From NCBI GenBank assembly GCA_036497345.1, contig DASXJP010000663.1:1-53715 (forward strand): a stretch of DNA of 53,715 nucleotides, in the 5' to 3' direction. The position numbers were made by a program, and so were the translations under genes. The notes under the pieces were generated by a model that ran no database searches, had not been told where the DNA came from, and saw only the letters and a program-made list of their open reading frames with translations. Shown piece after piece: positions 16,527-20,381 of the stretch. Numbering within the stretch: the stretch's first letter is position 1; every line of letters starts with the position of its first letter. Origin of the DNA: Thermoanaerobaculia bacterium (GTDB lineage Bacteria; Acidobacteriota; Thermoanaerobaculia; Multivoradales; UBA5704).

Positions 16527-19500
16527 TTATGTGCCGGCGCGGTCGATCTCGGCCAGGTAGGCCTCTTCGAGGTTGGGCTCGACCAGATCTCCCATGATCT
16601 CCTCGTCCGGCCGGGCGATGGCCCGCACCTGGATCCCTTCGAGCACGCGCACGCGGGAGGTCACGCGGTAGCGGCGGCCGAAATCGAGCAGCTCGGAGTC
16701 CGGGACCAGGGCGCTGAAGACCCGGCCGTAGGCGCGGCCGATGAGCTCCTCGGGGGTGCCGTCGAAGCGGAGCCGGCCCCGGTGGAGGAGGAGGATGCGC
16801 GAGGCGGCGGCCTCGACGTCGCTCGCGATGTGGGTCGAGAAGACGACCACGCGCTCGCCCGCCTGCTCCAGGAGAATCTGGCGGAAGCGGCCGCGGGCCT
16901 CGACGTCGAGCCCGGTCGTGGGCTCGTCCACGATCAGGATGGGCGGCGCGGCGAGCAGGGCGCGGGCGATGCCCACCCGCTGGCGCATGCCGCCCGAGTA
17001 GTCGCGCACCTTGCGGCCGGCGTGCTCGGCGAGGCCCACAGCGGCCAGCAGGCGCTCGATCTCCGCCCGCCGCTCTTGTGGAGCGGAGAGCCCCCGCTCC
17101 AGGGCCCAATGGTCGAGGAACTGCTCGGCGGTGAAGCCGGGGTAGGCGTTGAATTCCTGCGGGAGGAAGCCGATCCGCCGCCGGTATTCGGCCAGGTTGT
17201 CGGGGGTGATCGCCACCCCCCGGTAGAGCACCTTGCCGCGCGTGGGCTCCAGCAGGCCGGTGAGCAGGCGCAGCAGGGTGGTCTTGCCGGCGCCGTTCGG
17301 CCCCAGCAGGCCCACGATACCGGGGGTGAGAGTGAAGCTCACGCCGGAGAGGGCCCTGAAGCGGCCGCCGTAGACCTTGGTGAGGCTGCGCACCTCGAGC
17401 GTGGGCTCGCCGGGCTCCTCCCAGACGGGCGGCCGGCGCCGCTGCCGCTCCCGCTCGGGATCGCGCTCGCGCCAGCGCCGCCCGGCGAGCAGCAGGGCGG
17501 GTACCAGGAGGACGGAGGCCGCGAGAGATCCGCCCCCCGCCACCGCCGCCGCCCGCAGGGGGACGGCCCAGGCCGAGGTGCCAGGCAGCGCGCCGATCGT
17601 GGGAGCCGCCAACCCCACCACCAGGGCCGGCGCCGCGCCGAGGAGCCAGGGCGTCTGGCGGAGGAGCGATCCGTAGAGGCGTCCGCCGGGGGCGGAGGGA
17701 GAGGCCGCCGCTGCCGCCGCCGAGGGGAGGGCGAGCGCCAGCGCCGCGGCGAGGGCGAAGAGGGTGAGCTCGTCGATCCGCTCCAGGCGCGCCGCCACCA
17801 GCGGCAGGGCGGCCACCAGGCCCAGCAGCAGGGGGGAGAGCGCGGCGAGCCCGCGCGCCAGCGATCCCAGCCGGCAGGCGGCGAGGGCGAAGAGGAGCAG
17901 GGGGACGGCGAGGCCGAGCGCGATCAGCCGCCAGCGGTCGCCGTTCCAGATCTCGGATCTCAGCGAAGGAAGCTCGAGATCGCACGCCGCCGGCAGGGCG
18001 AGCTGCCGGAGGCTGCGGTCGATGTCTTTCCGCTTCTCCTTGCGCACCTCTTCCCTGGACAGGAGGATGTTGATCTCGACCGGCACCACGAACCGTCCGG
18101 ACTGCCGGGCCACCCGCGGGTGCACCGCCTCTTCCGAGATGGCGAGCGCCGCGGCGGGGCTGACGGTCCGCTCGCCCACGGGCACGGGCCGGGAGAGGAG
18201 GTCGGATAGTTGGGGGATGGTCCGGTCCGCGTCCTCGGGTGTGCCCGCCGGGACGGCCGTGAACGAGCGCTCCGGCCCGCCCGGCAGGAGAGTCGGAAGC
18301 TGGAGGGCGGGCGGCGGCAGGCTCTCTCGCCGCAGCCGGCCGGCGATCGCCGCCGCCTCGTCTGGTGGGGTACCGGCGCGCGGACGGAGGACGAGATGGA
18401 TGGTCGGCTCGTCCCACCCCGTGATCCAGTGCCGGCGCACCTTCAGGCTCGCCAGACGCTCGAGCAGGCGGTCGTAGCCGGCGCGCACGGCGTCGAGGTC
18501 GGCCCCGCGGAGGACGATCCGGTAGGTCGTCGCCTCCTCGTCGGTCTTGGCGTGCTCCTCGAGATCGTCGAGGAAGCTGCCGCTCCGGCTGGCCGAGGAG
18601 CGGAGGCCGGAGGAGATCTGAAGGGCTCCCAGACCGGACGCCTCGTACCGGAGCCGCGTGGTGAGGCTCTGCTGCCGCTCCGGGGAACGCCCGGCCGGGC
18701 TCAGCTCCGCCGTAGCCTGCGCCGTGCCGGGCACCGCGTAGATCCAGAACCGCTCCACCTCCGCGGCCTTGCCCAGGATCTCCTCCAGCCGGACCGCCCG
18801 GCGGACGGTCTCTTCGAGGGTCGTTCCCTGGGGGAGACGGAGGATCGCCGTCAGGTTCCCCTGGTCCGGCCGCAGGTCGCCCGGCCGGGGGAGGAGGACG
18901 CCGCCGAAGAGGGTCAATGAGAGATAGGCGGCGGTGGCGGCCAGGAGGACGACCGTGCCGGGATCGCGGAGGGCGAGCTTGAGGGTCTGCCTCTTCTTTT
19001 CCTCTCTCCCGGGACGGGAGAGGGGCCAGGGGTGAGGGCTCGGGAGGGGGAGCATCGCGATGGCGATGACTCCCGCCCCCACCGCCAAAGCCAACGCCAG
19101 AGCCGGCTCGGCCAGCCGGGGGCCGAGCTCGGCGCTGCCCAGCGATACCGCCACCACCGGCACCGCCGCGGCGGCGAAGGCGGTCCACCCCCAGGCCCGG
19201 ATGCCCTGCTTGTGGATCAAGCGGAGCGCGGCCAGGGGGAGCAGCGAGACCGCGCCCACGGCGAGGGCGATGAGGGTGGCGATATTCAAATCGACCCCCG
19301 CCAGCAGGAAGGCGTTGGCGGCGGCGGCCACGGCCGCGGGCACGGCGAGGCCGAGCGAGAGGGCGCCCCAGCGGCCGGCGAGCCACGCGCCAGCCGCCGC
19401 TCCCAGCGCTGAAGCGAGCAGAGCGGCGAGGACGAGGCGGAGCACCAGCCCGCGCAGGGGGGCCGCCTCACCCCAGCCGATCTCGCCGCGCACCCCGTCA

Positions 19501-20381
19501 GGGAGCCGCGCCAGCCGCCGGCGCAGGGCGCGGTCGAGGGCGAGGGGGGCCGCGTCGTGCGCCCGCCAGACGAAGAGGGCCCGGGCGGGCTGACCCCGGA
19601 ACCGCAGCTCGGCCTCCGCGGGCTGGCTGCGCGCGTGGAGCGCCGCGAGCGAGCCCAACGGCACGGCGCCGCCGTTCATGGGGATCTGCAGGCCCGCGAG
19701 GTTGCCGCCGGCGACCGCCACCACCGGCCGCAGGCGGTCCCCCTGGCGGCTCCAGCCGAGGGTGGGCACACGGAGCGACCGCCGGGCCTCGGCGAGCACG
19801 GAGCCGGCGGCGCTCCAGGGATCGAGCGTGCTGGCCGCCAGCACGGCCCGCACCTCCTCGTCCCGGGCGCCGAAGGTCTCGACGGCCCGCACGCCCGGCA
19901 CCGCGCGGAGCGTCTCGGCGGTGGCGCGGACATCCGCGTCGTCCCGCGCGCCGGAGAGCCAGACCAGAGCGTGGAAATCCCCCTGCTGGTCCGTGGCCGG
20001 ATCGACCCAGAGATTGGACCCCTCGGGGAGCCGGGCGCGCAGGCGGGCCAGCTCCGAGTCGAGCCGCGCCGCCTTGCGCTCGGGATCGACCCCGGGAGCG
20101 AAGCGCACCGTGAGGTCCGCCCCGTCGGTCCGCACCTCGCCGGCCACCCCGCGCACCCGGCCCAGCGAGCGGATGGCGCTCTCGACCGGCTCGATCCACT
20201 CGCGGGTCACCTCGCCCGGATCGCGTTCCTCGCCCAGGGTGAGCCCCACGGTCAGCTCCGGGAAGCTGCGCTGGGGGAGGTAGTCGAGCCGCAGCCGGGC
20301 CAGGGCGAACCCCCCCAGCACCAGCAGGGCCAGGGTGAGGATCAGGCGGGCGAGGGGGCGGCCGTGTATCTCTTTTTTCAT
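16527..20381 (-). CDS. RND-like permease fused to a C-terminal ABC ATPase domain (1284 aa)
   Basis: Uninterrupted ORF. The ATG overlaps the stop of the upstream RND gene (ATGA). Residues ~1-980 have the RND layout (TM1, large loop, TM cluster, basic linker, TM7, large loop, TM cluster). Residues ~985-1284 carry GPNGAGKTT, FLPQE, YSGGMRQR, ILIVDEPTTGLD and FSTHI. Confidence 0.8.
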   Translation of the reverse strand: MKKEIHGRPLARLILTLALLVLGGFALARLRLDYLPQRSFPELTVGLTLGEERDPGEVTREWIEPVESAIRSLGRVRGVAGEVRTDGADLTVRFAPGVDPERKAARLDSELARLRARLPEGSNLWVDPATDQQGDFHALVWLSGARDDADVRATAETLRAVPGVRAVETFGARDEEVRAVLAASTLDPWSAAGSVLAEARRSLRVPTLGWSRQGDRLRPVVAVAGGNLAGLQIPMNGGAVPLGSLAALHARSQPAEAELRFRGQPARALFVWRAHDAAPLALDRALRRRLARLPDGVRGEIGWGEAAPLRGLVLRLVLAALLASALGAAAGAWLAGRWGALSLGLAVPAAVAAAANAFLLAGVDLNIATLIALAVGAVSLLPLAALRLIHKQGIRAWGWTAFAAAAVPVVAVSLGSAELGPRLAEPALALALAVGAGVIAIAMLPLPSPHPWPLSRPGREEKKRQTLKLALRDPGTVVLLAATAAYLSLTLFGGVLLPRPGDLRPDQGNLTAILRLPQGTTLEETVRRAVRLEEILGKAAEVERFWIYAVPGTAQATAELSPAGRSPERQQSLTTRLRYEASGLGALQISSGLRSSASRSGSFLDDLEEHAKTDEEATTYRIVLRGADLDAVRAGYDRLLERLASLKVRRHWITGWDEPTIHLVLRPRAGTPPDEAAAIAGRLRRESLPPPALQLPTLLPGGPERSFTAVPAGTPEDADRTIPQLSDLLSRPVPVGERTVSPAAALAISEEAVHPRVARQSGRFVVPVEINILLSREEVRKEKRKDIDRSLRQLALPAACDLELPSLRSEIWNGDRWRLIALGLAVPLLLFALAACRLGSLARGLAALSPLLLGLVAALPLVAARLERIDELTLFALAAALALALPSAAAAAASPSAPGGRLYGSLLRQTPWLLGAAPALVVGLAAPTIGALPGTSAWAVPLRAAAVAGGGSLAASVLLVPALLLAGRRWRERDPERERQRRRPPVWEEPGEPTLEVRSLTKVYGGRFRALSGVSFTLTPGIVGLLGPNGAGKTTLLRLLTGLLEPTRGKVLYRGVAITPDNLAEYRRRIGFLPQEFNAYPGFTAEQFLDHWALERGLSAPQERRAEIERLLAAVGLAEHAGRKVRDYSGGMRQRVGIARALLAAPPILIVDEPTTGLDVEARGRFRQILLEQAGERVVVFSTHIASDVEAAASRILLLHRGRLRFDGTPEELIGRAYGRVFSALVPDSELLDFGRRYRVTSRVRVLEGIQVRAIARPDEEIMGDLVEPNLEEAYLAEIDRAGT
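19001..19038. repeat. REP-like element copy (hairpin + GGGTGAGGG box) inside a coding sequence
   Basis: CCTCTCTCCCG-GGA-CGGGAGAGGGG hairpin followed by GGGTGAGGG. Translated on the minus strand as PSPHPWPLSRPGRE. Confidence 0.6.

Follow-up and report, generated by a model that had tools for sequence, protein, structure and literature searches.

The AcrB or HAE-1-type RND permeases (AcrAB-TolC, AdeB, MtrD, OqxB) consist of 12 transmembrane (TM) helices with two large periplasmic loops. The operon for MdtABC of E. coli, which forms an MdtB2C heterotrimer, encodes one adaptor and, after it, two RND paralogues. In MdtB2C, energy transduction and substrate handling are split between the two RND paralogues (PMC4338810, PMC8277102), in that one of them transduces energy and the other can largely do without its relay (PMC4338810). 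In MacAB-TolC and other ABC tripartite pumps of the MacB/FtsX type, the cytoplasmic ATPase is covalently joined to a membrane protein that has a large periplasmic domain and cooperates with an MFP-type adaptor, and these pumps provide a functional analogy for ATP-driven periplasmic 'mechanotransmission'. The ABC-2 or type V exporters (DrrAB, NosDFY, PmtABCD, GldAFG, ABCA/ABCG) resemble the locus described here through its two ABC-2-type membrane proteins; to our knowledge, no described member has its nucleotide-binding domain (NBD) fused to an RND permease. Literature searches likewise found no description of an RND permease fused to an ABC ATPase, in agreement with the initial annotation of this DNA, which knew of no characterised protein combining the two.

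Here we analyse such a gene in a window of 53,715 nucleotides, contig DASXJP010000663.1 of a Thermoanaerobaculia bacterium. Its product has the helix and loop layout of the AcrB-type RNDs, whose structures superpose on the whole permease chain (Foldseek target TM-score 0.65-0.70), and it is also encoded beside an adaptor (MFP) gene. However, identity to these permeases is only ~15%, the acidic D407/D408 and the Lys at K940 of AcrB are replaced by Pro or aliphatic residues, and a complete ABC NBD follows TM12. The gene order recalls MdtABC, but here one paralogue is entirely devoid of the relay residues and has an ATPase attached, its partner RND falls in an RND_permease_2-like subfamily (D[SN]/NN motifs) and not with MdtB/C, and a heterotrimer is hypothetical. 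The fusion shares neither the N-terminal NBD nor the 4-TM FtsX fold nor the MacB_PCD domain of MacB; its NBD lies at the C-terminus of a 12-TM AcrB fold.

The fused gene and its product

The gene and its parts, all on the minus strand, are as follows:

16527..20381 (-), RND-like permease fused to an ABC NBD, uninterrupted ORF of 1284 aa plus stop
17478..20381 (-), RND-like permease part, residues 1-968, 12 TM helices and two periplasmic loops (hydropathy, AlphaFold, Foldseek)
19221..19292 (-), TM4 equivalent, residues 364-387, DLNIATLIALAVGAVSLLPLAALR (phmmer alignment to AdeJ/AdeB)
17703..17774 (-), TM10 equivalent, residues 870-893 (column counts in 93 homologues)
17400..17477 (-), basic linker between TM12 and the NBD, ~26 residues (RRWRERDPERERQRRRPPVWEEPGEPT), with no stop and no ATG in the DNA
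16530..17399 (-), ABC-2/DrrA-type NBD and C-terminal domain, residues 995-1284 (ABC_tran 118 bits)

This ORF, read by the initial annotation as one uninterrupted frame of 1284 codons, is a real gene, from a bacterium of the Thermoanaerobaculia (Acidobacteriota). A profile HMM scan and an orthologue search had been proposed, and both uphold the covalent fusion of a complete ABC NBD to an RND-type permease: the translation matches Pfam ACR_tran (65 bits, cut-off 28) and ABC_tran (118 bits, cut-off 25), and both domains are found at 98-100% coverage in ~100 homologue clusters, defined at 90% identity, of 1237-1410 aa and 38-94% identity, mostly from Thermoanaerobaculia. The clusters derive from three data sources and from independent assemblies, including complete contigs of 2-9 Mb, and the full-length representatives at 50% identity all measure 1217-1441 aa. 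Because the fusion is kept in ~100 clusters and no genuine unfused orthologue was found among the homologues, an assembly artefact is ruled out. A spurious fusion of an RND gene with an adjacent NBD gene, through a frameshift or chimeric join, might be suspected in a genome of ~71% G+C, where long spurious ORFs are common, and from a 'split' version in one MAG (L088). The latter, however, is a frameshifted assembly in which the 'NBD gene' starts within TM12, the unfused-looking P0276 is truncated at a contig end, and the junction sequence and linker motif are conserved; sequence conservation already refutes this explanation, whose probability is practically nil. On the three points where the initial annotation had seen its reading exposed, no junction error and no separate-NBD orthologue appeared, and RND HMMs matched.

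The permease part is RND-like, with 12 TM helices and the complete AcrB fold. Both hydropathy and the AlphaFold model of the fusion (pLDDT 82, pTM 0.74) agree with the RND layout proposed earlier, giving helices in a 1+5 / 1+5 arrangement (TM1 10-30, TM2-6 ~307-442, TM7 474-496, TM8-12 ~814-972) and periplasmic loops of ~280 and ~320 residues. Foldseek aligned ~1090 columns of the model to whole AcrB/MtrD/OqxB/AdeB chains with E of 1e-38 to 1e-40, and the family profile reached 132 bits against the AdeB entries 7b8p/6ows. The motifs quoted in the initial annotation (TM1 LARLILTLALLVLGGFALARL, LDYLPQRSFPELTVGLTL, VPGVRAVETFGARDEEVRAVL, GPNGAGKTT, FLPQE, YSGGMRQR, ILIVDEPTTGLD and FSTHI) are all present in the translation. 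The membrane helices are rich in Ala and Leu and have few polar residues. Conservation is 0.63-0.73 in TM1, TM2-6, TM7, TM8-12, both periplasmic loops and the TM12-NBD linker, with 76 and 56 loop positions at least 90% conserved; it falls to 0.30 in the cytoplasmic TM6-TM7 linker and is highest in the NBD (0.86).

In phmmer alignments, TM4 pairs with the AdeJ/AdeB segment 'FSINTLTMFAMVLAIGLLV[DD]', so that Pro382/Leu/Ala of the fusion occupy the AcrB D407/D408 positions. P382 occurs in 88/93 homologues, followed by L/A and A, and column counts reveal no acidic residue at this position across the 93 sequences. TM10 begins at its periplasmic side with D870 (91/93) and E871 (93/93), and L885/P886, the latter in 77/93, fall in the AcrB K940 region. 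As read from these alignments, Pro or aliphatic residues fill the proton-relay positions of TM4 and TM10; the lack of an acidic TM4 residue and, to judge from motif conservation, the loss of the relay, both suggested before, hold throughout the fusion's own lineage.

The TM12-NBD linker, ~25-60 aa long in every member of the family, carries a conserved PPxW; in the fusion, P984 and P985 are near-invariant and W987 is invariant. The DNA has neither ATG nor stop between TM12 and Walker A, as had been stated. The V986 codon is GTC, and the sole GTG of the junction, V997, sits within NBD strand beta1, and the SD-like GGAGGAG upstream of it is too distant to serve it. In the NBD, Walker A (1027-1034), Q1075, the signature (S1129-R1133), Walker B (D1152-E1153) and H1184 are recognised; K1033, Q1075, SGGMR, D1152 and H1184 do not vary among the 93 homologues, and E1153 is kept in at least 90% of them. 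By these motifs the domain is a catalytically intact ABC-2-type ATPase domain. Like the standalone paralogue described below, it scores best against DrrA, GldA and NodI (NCBIfam) and ABCA NBDs and NosF (PDB), while remaining below every NCBIfam family cut-off.

The operon and its counterparts in Bacteroidota

Gene order and conservation indicate that the fusion is the last gene of a conserved six-gene export operon, given here in the direction of reading together with the gene downstream:

27994..28899 (-), standalone ABC NBD, 301 aa, paralogue of the fused NBD (ABC_tran 96 bits)
25244..27997 (-), ABC-2-type permease, 917 aa, with an extra TM helix and a ~580-aa periplasmic domain (weak ABC2_membrane_2 match)
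24567..25247 (-), small ABC-2 (type V) permease-like membrane protein, 226 aa, ~6 TM helices (sequence, Foldseek)
23329..24393 (-), periplasmic adaptor (MFP) lipoprotein, ~354 aa, start inferred (RND_mfp TIGR01730, 143 bits)
20378..23332 (-), partner RND permease, 984 aa (ACR_tran 518 bits)
16527..20381 (-), the fusion
15332..16498 (-), DUF4412 gene (48 bits)

The cassette is conserved with differing flanks in the window and in three other loci (L001, L002, L004), and three of its gene junctions overlap by ATGA. The partner RND adjoins the fusion in all of them, and its stop overlaps the fusion start (ATGA) here, with a start/stop overlap also in L001 and L004. The DUF4412 gene, present in L001 and absent in L002 and L004, is by this comparison not a conserved part of the cassette and is possibly co-transcribed with it. 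The partner, described earlier as a canonical RND, has TM4 GMLVDSSIVV, TM10 VVNNAIVLV and TM11 RYRPILMT, with Asn at the AcrB K940 position. The TM4 Asp is kept in the partner and lost in the fusion. In the adaptor, which is 81% identical to its L001 homologue, the lipobox LAAC matches Cys16 of that homologue. The Acidobacteriota cassettes contain no outer-membrane factor gene.

The standalone NBD, with all motifs canonical, is 44% identical to the fused one over 288 aa, including the C-terminal domain; this context, with two ABC-2-type membrane subunits, lay outside the initial annotation. The 917-aa permease has an N-terminal membrane domain collinear with Bacteroidota ABC-2/M1-like proteins of 1111-1115 aa. 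The small protein, whose start overlaps the stop of the 917-aa gene, is conserved in the cassette and has no Pfam family among 495 homologues. Its AlphaFold model (pLDDT 79.8) finds at the top of Foldseek the ABC-2-type transmembrane domains of PmtCD, NosY, ABCG2 and ABCA4 with probabilities up to 0.98 and E of only 0.2-1, which, together with a motif, weakly suggests an ABC-2 fold.

Variant RND::NBD fusions, not seen by the initial annotation, are abundant in Bacteroidota (for example Maribellus comscasis, Draconibacterium and Tangfeifania), where they are annotated as 'efflux RND transporter permease subunit' or 'ATP-binding cassette domain-containing protein'. They share the domain order and an equivalent cassette (NBD, ABC-2/M1-like permease, adaptor, RND, RND::NBD, small 6-TM protein). 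Unlike the fusion described here, they are 1555-1580 aa long, have a canonical RND part (ACR_tran 559 bits), two extra TM helices after TM12 and an insertion of about four TM helices that separates NBD strands beta1 and beta2, and their TM4 keeps Asp ('DN' in 119/120 sequences, as in the partner RNDs); type-C fused RNDs also keep the TM4 Asp of their subfamily while carrying the NBD. The Bacteroidota cassettes (L038, L086, L006, L009, L013) include an outer-membrane factor gene, and in 5/5 loci the small permease, for which there is no separate NBD gene, comes immediately after the fused NBD, in the usual order of NBD then permease. One further locus (L007) has an autonomous NBD and large-permease module without small permease or RND. 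Profile comparison of the Acidobacteriota and Bacteroidota small proteins gave an E of only 0.06. The NBD tree is star-like and does not show co-evolution of fused and standalone NBDs.

Possible modes of action

We tentatively favour, at a probability of roughly 40%, a composite exporter of the envelope that draws on two sources of energy. The fusion would be the non-proton-translocating protomer of a hetero-oligomeric RND pump formed with its translationally coupled partner, in a division of labour like that of MdtB2C, and the pump would work with the adaptor and with an outer-membrane factor whose gene lies elsewhere. The fused NBD would be an active ATPase that pairs with a second NBD, for which the standalone paralogue is the most economical choice, to close an ATP sandwich over the two ABC-2-type membrane subunits. 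Because the fused NBD would sit over the ABC-2 subunits, the covalent link would keep an ATP-driven ABC-2 extractor attached to a PMF-driven RND/adaptor conduit, perhaps with conformational coupling of the two; substrate lifted from the cytoplasm or inner membrane would pass directly to the periplasmic entrance of the RND. With a single fusion protomer in each RND trimer, the stoichiometric mismatch between trimer and dimer would disappear. This model is suggested by the two NBD paralogues and two ABC-2-type proteins per cassette, the apparent ATPase competence of the highly conserved NBD, the relay lost in the fusion and kept in its partner, the persistence of the operon between differing flanks and in Bacteroidota, the NBD-less small permease behind the fused NBD there, the autonomous L007 module, the Bacteroidota TM4 'DN', by which ATP would not be needed merely to replace PMF, and the precedents of MdtB2C and of the start/stop overlap with the partner. 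Against it, the proposed contacts are hypothetical, the modelling having covered single chains, the short linker (~26 aa) and the lineage-confined relay loss would equally fit an NBD docked under its own RND-like domain, both NBD sites are canonical so that nothing marks an obligate heterodimer, and heteromeric ABC membrane-domain pairs are usually served by an NBD homodimer. The star-like NBD tree, the weak ABC-2 assignment of the small protein and the Acidobacteriota cassettes lacking an outer-membrane factor gene also count against it.

The main rival, somewhat less probable in our view, is an RND driven directly by ATP, in which the NBDs of two fusion protomers would dimerise on ATP and, acting through TM12 and the short linker, push the relay-less membrane domain, driving the periplasmic porter cycle. 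Such a pump, whether a homodimer, a 2:1 heterotrimer with the partner or a homotrimer in which one NBD idles, would bring MacB-like mechanotransmission to an AcrB scaffold, and the ABC-2 module would be a separate, merely co-regulated transporter. The replaced relay positions in 93/93 members beside invariant NBD motifs would suit it, as would a PPxW linker of the length typical of junctions serving their own chain, the whole AcrB fold with moderately conserved porter and docking domains, and the autonomy of the large-permease and NBD module in other genomes. Yet Bacteroidota-type and type-C fused RNDs keep the TM4 Asp, and the ATPase is therefore not simply a PMF substitute; moreover, the TM6-TM7 linker is poorly conserved, there is no obvious coupling helix, the small ABC-2-like permease would be left without a cognate NBD, and the strict co-occurrence of both modules would go unexplained. 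Considerably less probable still is a degenerate RND-like part acting as a non-transporting structural protomer or membrane anchor without mechanical contribution to export, the NBD being a sensor or gate through which ATP would turn the PMF-driven partner on or off, or the fusion merely anchoring the ABC-2 transporter's ATPase at the membrane. The nonpolar helices, the lost relay and an ACR_tran match of 65 bits, against 518 bits for the partner, point that way, but loops and membrane domain are clearly constrained (D870/E871 included), the whole AcrB fold is modelled with confidence, and the full catalytic set with Walker B Glu and H-loop His argues for hydrolysis and not mere binding.

As judged from the homologues, the RND::NBD architecture recurs in two bacterial phyla and, because the Bacteroidota fused RND keeps its TM4 Asp, the fusion is no simple swap of proton power for ATP; that ATP replaces the PMF is one reading among others and may not be the best.

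The fused gene and its operon

RND pumps are the textbook proton-motive-force (PMF)-driven efflux machines of diderm bacteria, while ABC pumps are driven by ATP. The initial annotation had proposed that an RND-type permease and a nucleotide-binding domain (NBD) of the ABC class are joined in one minus-strand reading frame at 16527..20381, and reading of the ORF and of its translation bears this out: the frame runs without interruption through 1284 codons and a stop, and all of the motifs quoted earlier are found in the product. The DNA across the RND/NBD junction contains neither a stop nor an ATG, in agreement with what had been noted for the stretch between the last transmembrane (TM) cluster and Walker A; the V986 codon is GTC, and the sole GTG at the junction falls within strand beta1 of the NBD. 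The fusion gene closes a run of six genes read in one direction, listed here with their neighbours.

Genes of the fusion operon and neighbouring genes in the window
27994..28899 (-): standalone NBD, 44% identity with the fused NBD along its entire length, motifs all canonical
25244..27997 (-): large permease, 917 aa; N-terminal ABC-2-like membrane domain, extra TM helix, ~580-aa periplasmic domain
24567..25247 (-): small permease, 226 aa, ~6 TM helices, no Pfam family
~23329..24393 (-): adaptor (MFP) lipoprotein
20378..23332 (-): partner RND, 984 aa; ACR_tran 518 bits; TM4 GMLVDSSIVV, TM10 VVNNAIVLV, TM11 RYRPILMT
16527..20381 (-): RND-like permease::NBD fusion
15332..16498 (-): DUF4412 gene, 28 nt downstream of the fusion
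28995..33051 (+): DUF1800 and DUF1501 pair, divergent from the export operon
8707..12548 (-): ABC importer operon, comprising SBP_bac_11 (11358..12548), BPD_transp_1 (10546..11361) and ATPase (8707..10545)

ATGA overlaps occur at three junctions, namely standalone NBD/large permease, large/small permease and RND/fusion, the ATG of the fusion overlapping the stop codon of the partner RND gene. This six-gene set is found in unchanged order around homologues of 80%, 41% and 38% identity (loci L001, L004 and L002, respectively), with different flanking genes, and the order adaptor - RND - fusion is present in the window, in these three loci and in the Bacteroidota-type cassettes L038 and L086. An adaptor, an RND that bears the relay, an NBD paralogue and a pair of ABC-2-type membrane proteins obligatorily accompany the fusion. 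This context had been missed, and the earlier interpretation of the fusion is supported, but incomplete.

The fusion is a genuine, conserved and widespread gene. Among 5.8 billion proteins searched, its homologues (38-94% identity, 98-100% coverage) form ~100 clusters of 1237-1410 aa, all of which have both PF00873 and PF00005; the underlying assemblies (NCBI, JGI, ENA and Logan) include contigs as long as 2.1, 7.0 and 8.8 Mb, and where a taxon is named it is nearly always Thermoanaerobaculia or Acidobacteriota. An exhaustive profile search with the RND-like part alone as query (1.84 billion representatives, E <= 1e-30) gave 101 proteins, and those of full length all have the length of a fusion (1217-1441 aa). 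The linker between TM12 and the NBD is conserved as well, with ~25-60 aa and the motif RRRxPPxW in most family members. No genuine unfused orthologue emerged from these searches: P0276 (997 aa) is cut by the end of its contig, and the shorter matches of the RND-like-part search are fragments. In addition, an apparent natural split was rejected as a frameshifted metagenome-assembled genome (MAG), in which similarity along the alignment is patchy and the NBD ORF starts inside TM12:

L088, 2935..10367 (MAG GCA_024708825.1): 'RND-RND' ORF of 2107 aa, then NBD ORF of 370 aa

The conservation of the fusion across clusters and full-length representatives rules out that it was produced by an assembly error or a frameshift, an origin to which virtually no weight can be given.

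The promoter/terminator scan of the window DNA (71% G+C) was uninformative. The DUF4412 gene follows the fusion in L001 too, there with a DUF4442 gene, and probably lies outside the core system, since it is missing downstream of the fusion in L002 and L004. DUF1800 adjoins the export operon in L001 also. In the importer ATPase (612 aa), the CysA_C/TOBE region is followed by a C-terminal universal stress protein (Usp) domain, and this ATPase::Usp fusion is also found in the syntenic locus L001.

RND-like body and ATPase domain

The RND layout previously read into residues ~1-980 is confirmed by profile, topology and fold, and the profile scan finds both domains above their cut-offs. PF00873 (ACR_tran) matches the fusion with 65.1 bits (cut-off 28), best at residues 8-293, and the family profile matches the AdeB entries 7b8p/6ows of the PDB with 132 bits over residues 4-545. 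Hydropathy indicates 12 TM helices in the 1+5/1+5 RND pattern (TM1 10-30, TM2-6 ~307-447, TM7 478-498, TM8-12 ~820-968), with large periplasmic loops between TM1-2 and TM7-8. The AlphaFold2 model of residues 1-1200, built with 93 homologues (pLDDT 82, pTM 0.74), aligns in Foldseek over ~1090 columns to whole AcrB, MtrD, OqxB and AdeB chains (E 1e-38 to 1e-40, target TM-score 0.65-0.70, ~15% identity); because whole AcrB-type chains are covered, the protein retains the RND fold in both its halves, periplasmic domains included.

The fusion shares fold and 12-TM topology with AcrB-type RNDs, but differs from them in the absence of the proton-relay residues, which in AcrB are D407/D408 (TM4) and K940 (TM10). 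With TM4 aligned to 'FSINTLTMFAMVLAIGLLV[DD]' of AdeJ/AdeB, the D407/D408 positions are occupied by P382 (88 of the 93 aligned sequences), then L or A, then A384, and no member of this alignment has an acidic residue at the TM4 relay site; the K940 region of TM10 is L885/P886 (77/93). The loss of the relay, initially noticed as a TM4 without acidic residue, is a property of the aligned family. The sole conserved acidic pair, D870 (91/93) and E871 (93/93), lies at the periplasmic start of TM10. Across the 93 homologues, the mean top-residue frequency is 0.63-0.73 in TM1, TM2-6, TM7, TM8-12, the two periplasmic loops and the TM12-NBD linker, and 0.30 in the TM6-TM7 cytoplasmic linker. The body thus looks like a constrained but relay-less AcrB-like membrane part and, since it agrees with the RND HMM and topology but not with the relay, it is best called RND-like rather than a standard PMF-driven RND.

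The ATPase domain is complete, as originally described, with a PF00005 (ABC_tran) match of 118 bits at residues 1011-1156 and the full motif set: GPNGAGKT (Walker A), Q1075, SGGMR, D1152-E1153 and H1184. K1033, Q1075, S1129-G-G-M-R, D1152 and H1184 are invariant in the 93 homologues and E1153 is present in at least 90%; furthermore, the NBD is the best-conserved part of the protein (mean top-residue frequency 0.86) and therefore, by its sequence, looks like a working ATPase. Its best NCBIfam matches are the ABC-2-type ATPases DrrA, GldA and NodI, each under its own family cut-off (166 bits against 312 for DrrA), and the best PDB matches of the profile over this region are the NBDs of ABCA1/3/4/7 and NosF; the fused NBD is a bona fide ABC-2-class ATPase. 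Identity as a MacB/FtsX pump was considered and rejected: unlike these pumps, the fusion matches neither PF02687 (the FtsX 4-TM domain) nor PF12704 (the MacB periplasmic core domain), and its NBD is C-terminal, not N-terminal.

In the search for Rosetta-stone proteins, no fusion of the NBD to the small permease was found; all fusions end 97-144 residues beyond the H-loop. A neighbour-joining tree of NBDs, aimed at distinguishing one ancient from independent fusions and at whether fused and standalone NBDs are sisters, was star-like, with pairwise identities all of 36-45%, and uninformative on both points.

Related cassettes in Bacteroidota

The RND::NBD architecture recurs in at least two phyla, Acidobacteriota and Bacteroidota. 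Equivalent cassettes are found in a Bacteroidales MAG (L038) and in Maribellus comscasis (L086), in the order NBD, ABC-2/M1-peptidase-like permease (1111-1115 aa), outer-membrane factor, adaptor, RND, RND::NBD (1567-1574 aa) and ~6-TM protein (238-239 aa). More than 120 Bacteroidota-type clusters were collected at >=71% identity, the cultured Maribellus, Draconibacterium and Tangfeifania among them, annotated just as 'efflux RND transporter permease subunit' or 'ATP-binding cassette domain-containing protein'. A profile scan of genome contigs with the full-length alignment caught generic NBD motifs and mostly unrelated ABC genes, but still exposed the extra cassettes L006, L009, L010, L013 and L038, of which L006, L009 and L013 are further Bacteroidota-type cassettes.

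RND::NBD genes outside the Acidobacteriota lineage
L038, 9992..14695: Bacteroidota RND::NBD
L086, 10001..14725: Bacteroidota RND::NBD
L003, 1..4407: Bacteroidota RND::NBD
L009, 6116..10825: Bacteroidota RND::NBD
L013, 6059..10861: Bacteroidota RND::NBD
L010, 457..12971: third cassette layout, uncultured bacterium; RND (1101 aa), 922-aa ABC-2-like protein, RND::NBD (1437 aa), outer-membrane factor

The fused RNDs of the Bacteroidota-type and L010 fusions are canonical (ACR_tran ~560 bits), and the Bacteroidota-type ones have, as their partner RNDs do, 'DN' in TM4 and 'NN' in TM10 in 119 of 120 sequences. Relay loss is confined to the Thermoanaerobaculia/Acidobacteriota fusion lineage. The Bacteroidota-type fusions have two additional TM helices beyond RND TM12, and strand beta1 of the NBD ('INIKIRKLVKIY') is separated from its beta2/Walker A region by ~4 inserted TM helices, a membrane-embedded insert inside an ABC ATPase fold. 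The L010 fusion has 'IDSS' in TM4 and a ~45-aa non-TM insert between NBD beta1 and beta2.

In all five Bacteroidota-type loci the gene immediately after the fused NBD encodes the small six-TM protein. Profiles of the small proteins from Acidobacteriota and Bacteroidota align collinearly, although the match is weak (E = 0.06). BLASTP between the large permeases of the two phyla gave no match; their N-terminal membrane domains align collinearly. An autonomous pair of NBD and large permease, with neither RND nor small permease, is found in Aquimarina (L007). The AlphaFold model of the small permease (pLDDT 79.8) has its best Foldseek matches among type V/ABC-2 TM domains (PmtCD, NosY, ABCG2, ABCA4), with probability up to 0.98, yet E of only 0.2-1. 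Its family counts at least 495 database proteins, all annotated as hypothetical and outside any Pfam family, with a conserved motif 'ERRxGxLDLALxxP' after TM2. The C-terminal ~580 aa of the large permease have no Pfam match, its Bacteroidota counterparts match Peptidase_M1 and Golvesin_C weakly, and no HExxH motif was seen on reading the sequence of the 917-aa protein. None of the NCBIfam models is dedicated to the fusion or to either permease.

Models of energy coupling

The best model, to which we assign a probability of roughly 0.4, is that the fusion operon builds one composite exporter. In this exporter the fusion would be the non-proton-translocating protomer of a hetero-oligomeric RND, with a precedent in MdtB2C, where energy transduction and substrate handling are divided between paralogues (PMC4338810; PMC8277102). 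As in mdtABC, a single adaptor gene precedes a pair of RND paralogues in the operon; the sole sequence hint of divided roles is that the partner retains the TM4 Asp and the TM11 Arg, whereas the fusion is without the TM4 Asp. Partner RNDs of the window, L001, L002, L004, L038 and L086 have LVD[SN] in TM4 and VVN[NHD] in TM10; with this single Asp, and Asn at the position of AcrB K940, the subfamily must use a relay unlike D407/D408/K940. The fused NBD would pair with a second NBD, for which the standalone paralogue is the most economical choice, to close an ATP sandwich over ABC-2-type subunits, for which the operon offers two candidates, and the covalent link would tether this ATP-driven extractor to the PMF-driven RND/adaptor conduit. 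In favour of the composite exporter, each cassette has a pair of NBDs and a pair of ABC-2 membrane domains, and the small permease, which lacks an NBD gene of its own, occupies the NBD-then-permease position in Bacteroidota. The fused RNDs that keep the TM4 Asp outside the Acidobacteriota lineage also argue that the ATPase is not needed merely to replace the PMF. The mismatch between trimeric RND and dimeric NBD raised by the initial annotation would vanish, because one fusion per trimer suffices.

In the main rival model, the NBDs of two fusion protomers would form a dimer that acts directly on the relay-less RND membrane domain, with a MacB-like mechanotransmission on an AcrB scaffold. The short TM12-NBD linker and the lineage-specific relay loss fit this well, but it would leave the small permease orphaned and the Asp-retaining fusions unexplained, and we consider it somewhat less probable than the composite exporter. 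A scaffold or regulatory role is less probable still, since the periplasmic domains are under constraint and the full hydrolytic motif set is retained. Considered more broadly, an RND-fold transporter energised by ATP is a tentative possibility that may take two forms: the fused NBDs could directly drive the porter cycle of the AcrB-like protomer that lacks the relay, where NBD pairings might conceivably alternate around a trimer, or the fusion could hard-wire an ABC-2 extractor powered by ATP to an RND conduit powered by the PMF, in a single trans-envelope machine with two engines. If true, either would be an energy coupling not described for RND pumps and conserved in at least two phyla, and there is a substantial chance, although below even odds, that the coupling is categorically new. 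In reviews, RND and ABC pumps figure as alternative engines at the inner membrane of tripartite systems (PMC8277102). No RND-ABC fusion is mentioned in a comprehensive 2021 review of tripartite pumps, and the fusion is undescribed in the full-text literature searched, a scope outside which most subscription-journal papers lie; within it, the initial statement that no characterised protein combines both in one chain holds.

In this conserved family, hidden by current annotation, RND and ABC are welded together in an operon with a second ATPase and ABC-2 permeases. The fusion bears on how remote energy input reaches the RND porter domain, on the physical coupling of cytoplasm-to-periplasm and periplasm-to-outside transport steps and on the ways of combining trimeric with dimeric modules, and these questions are open to experiment because cultured Bacteroidota (Maribellus, Draconibacterium) carry the sister architecture.
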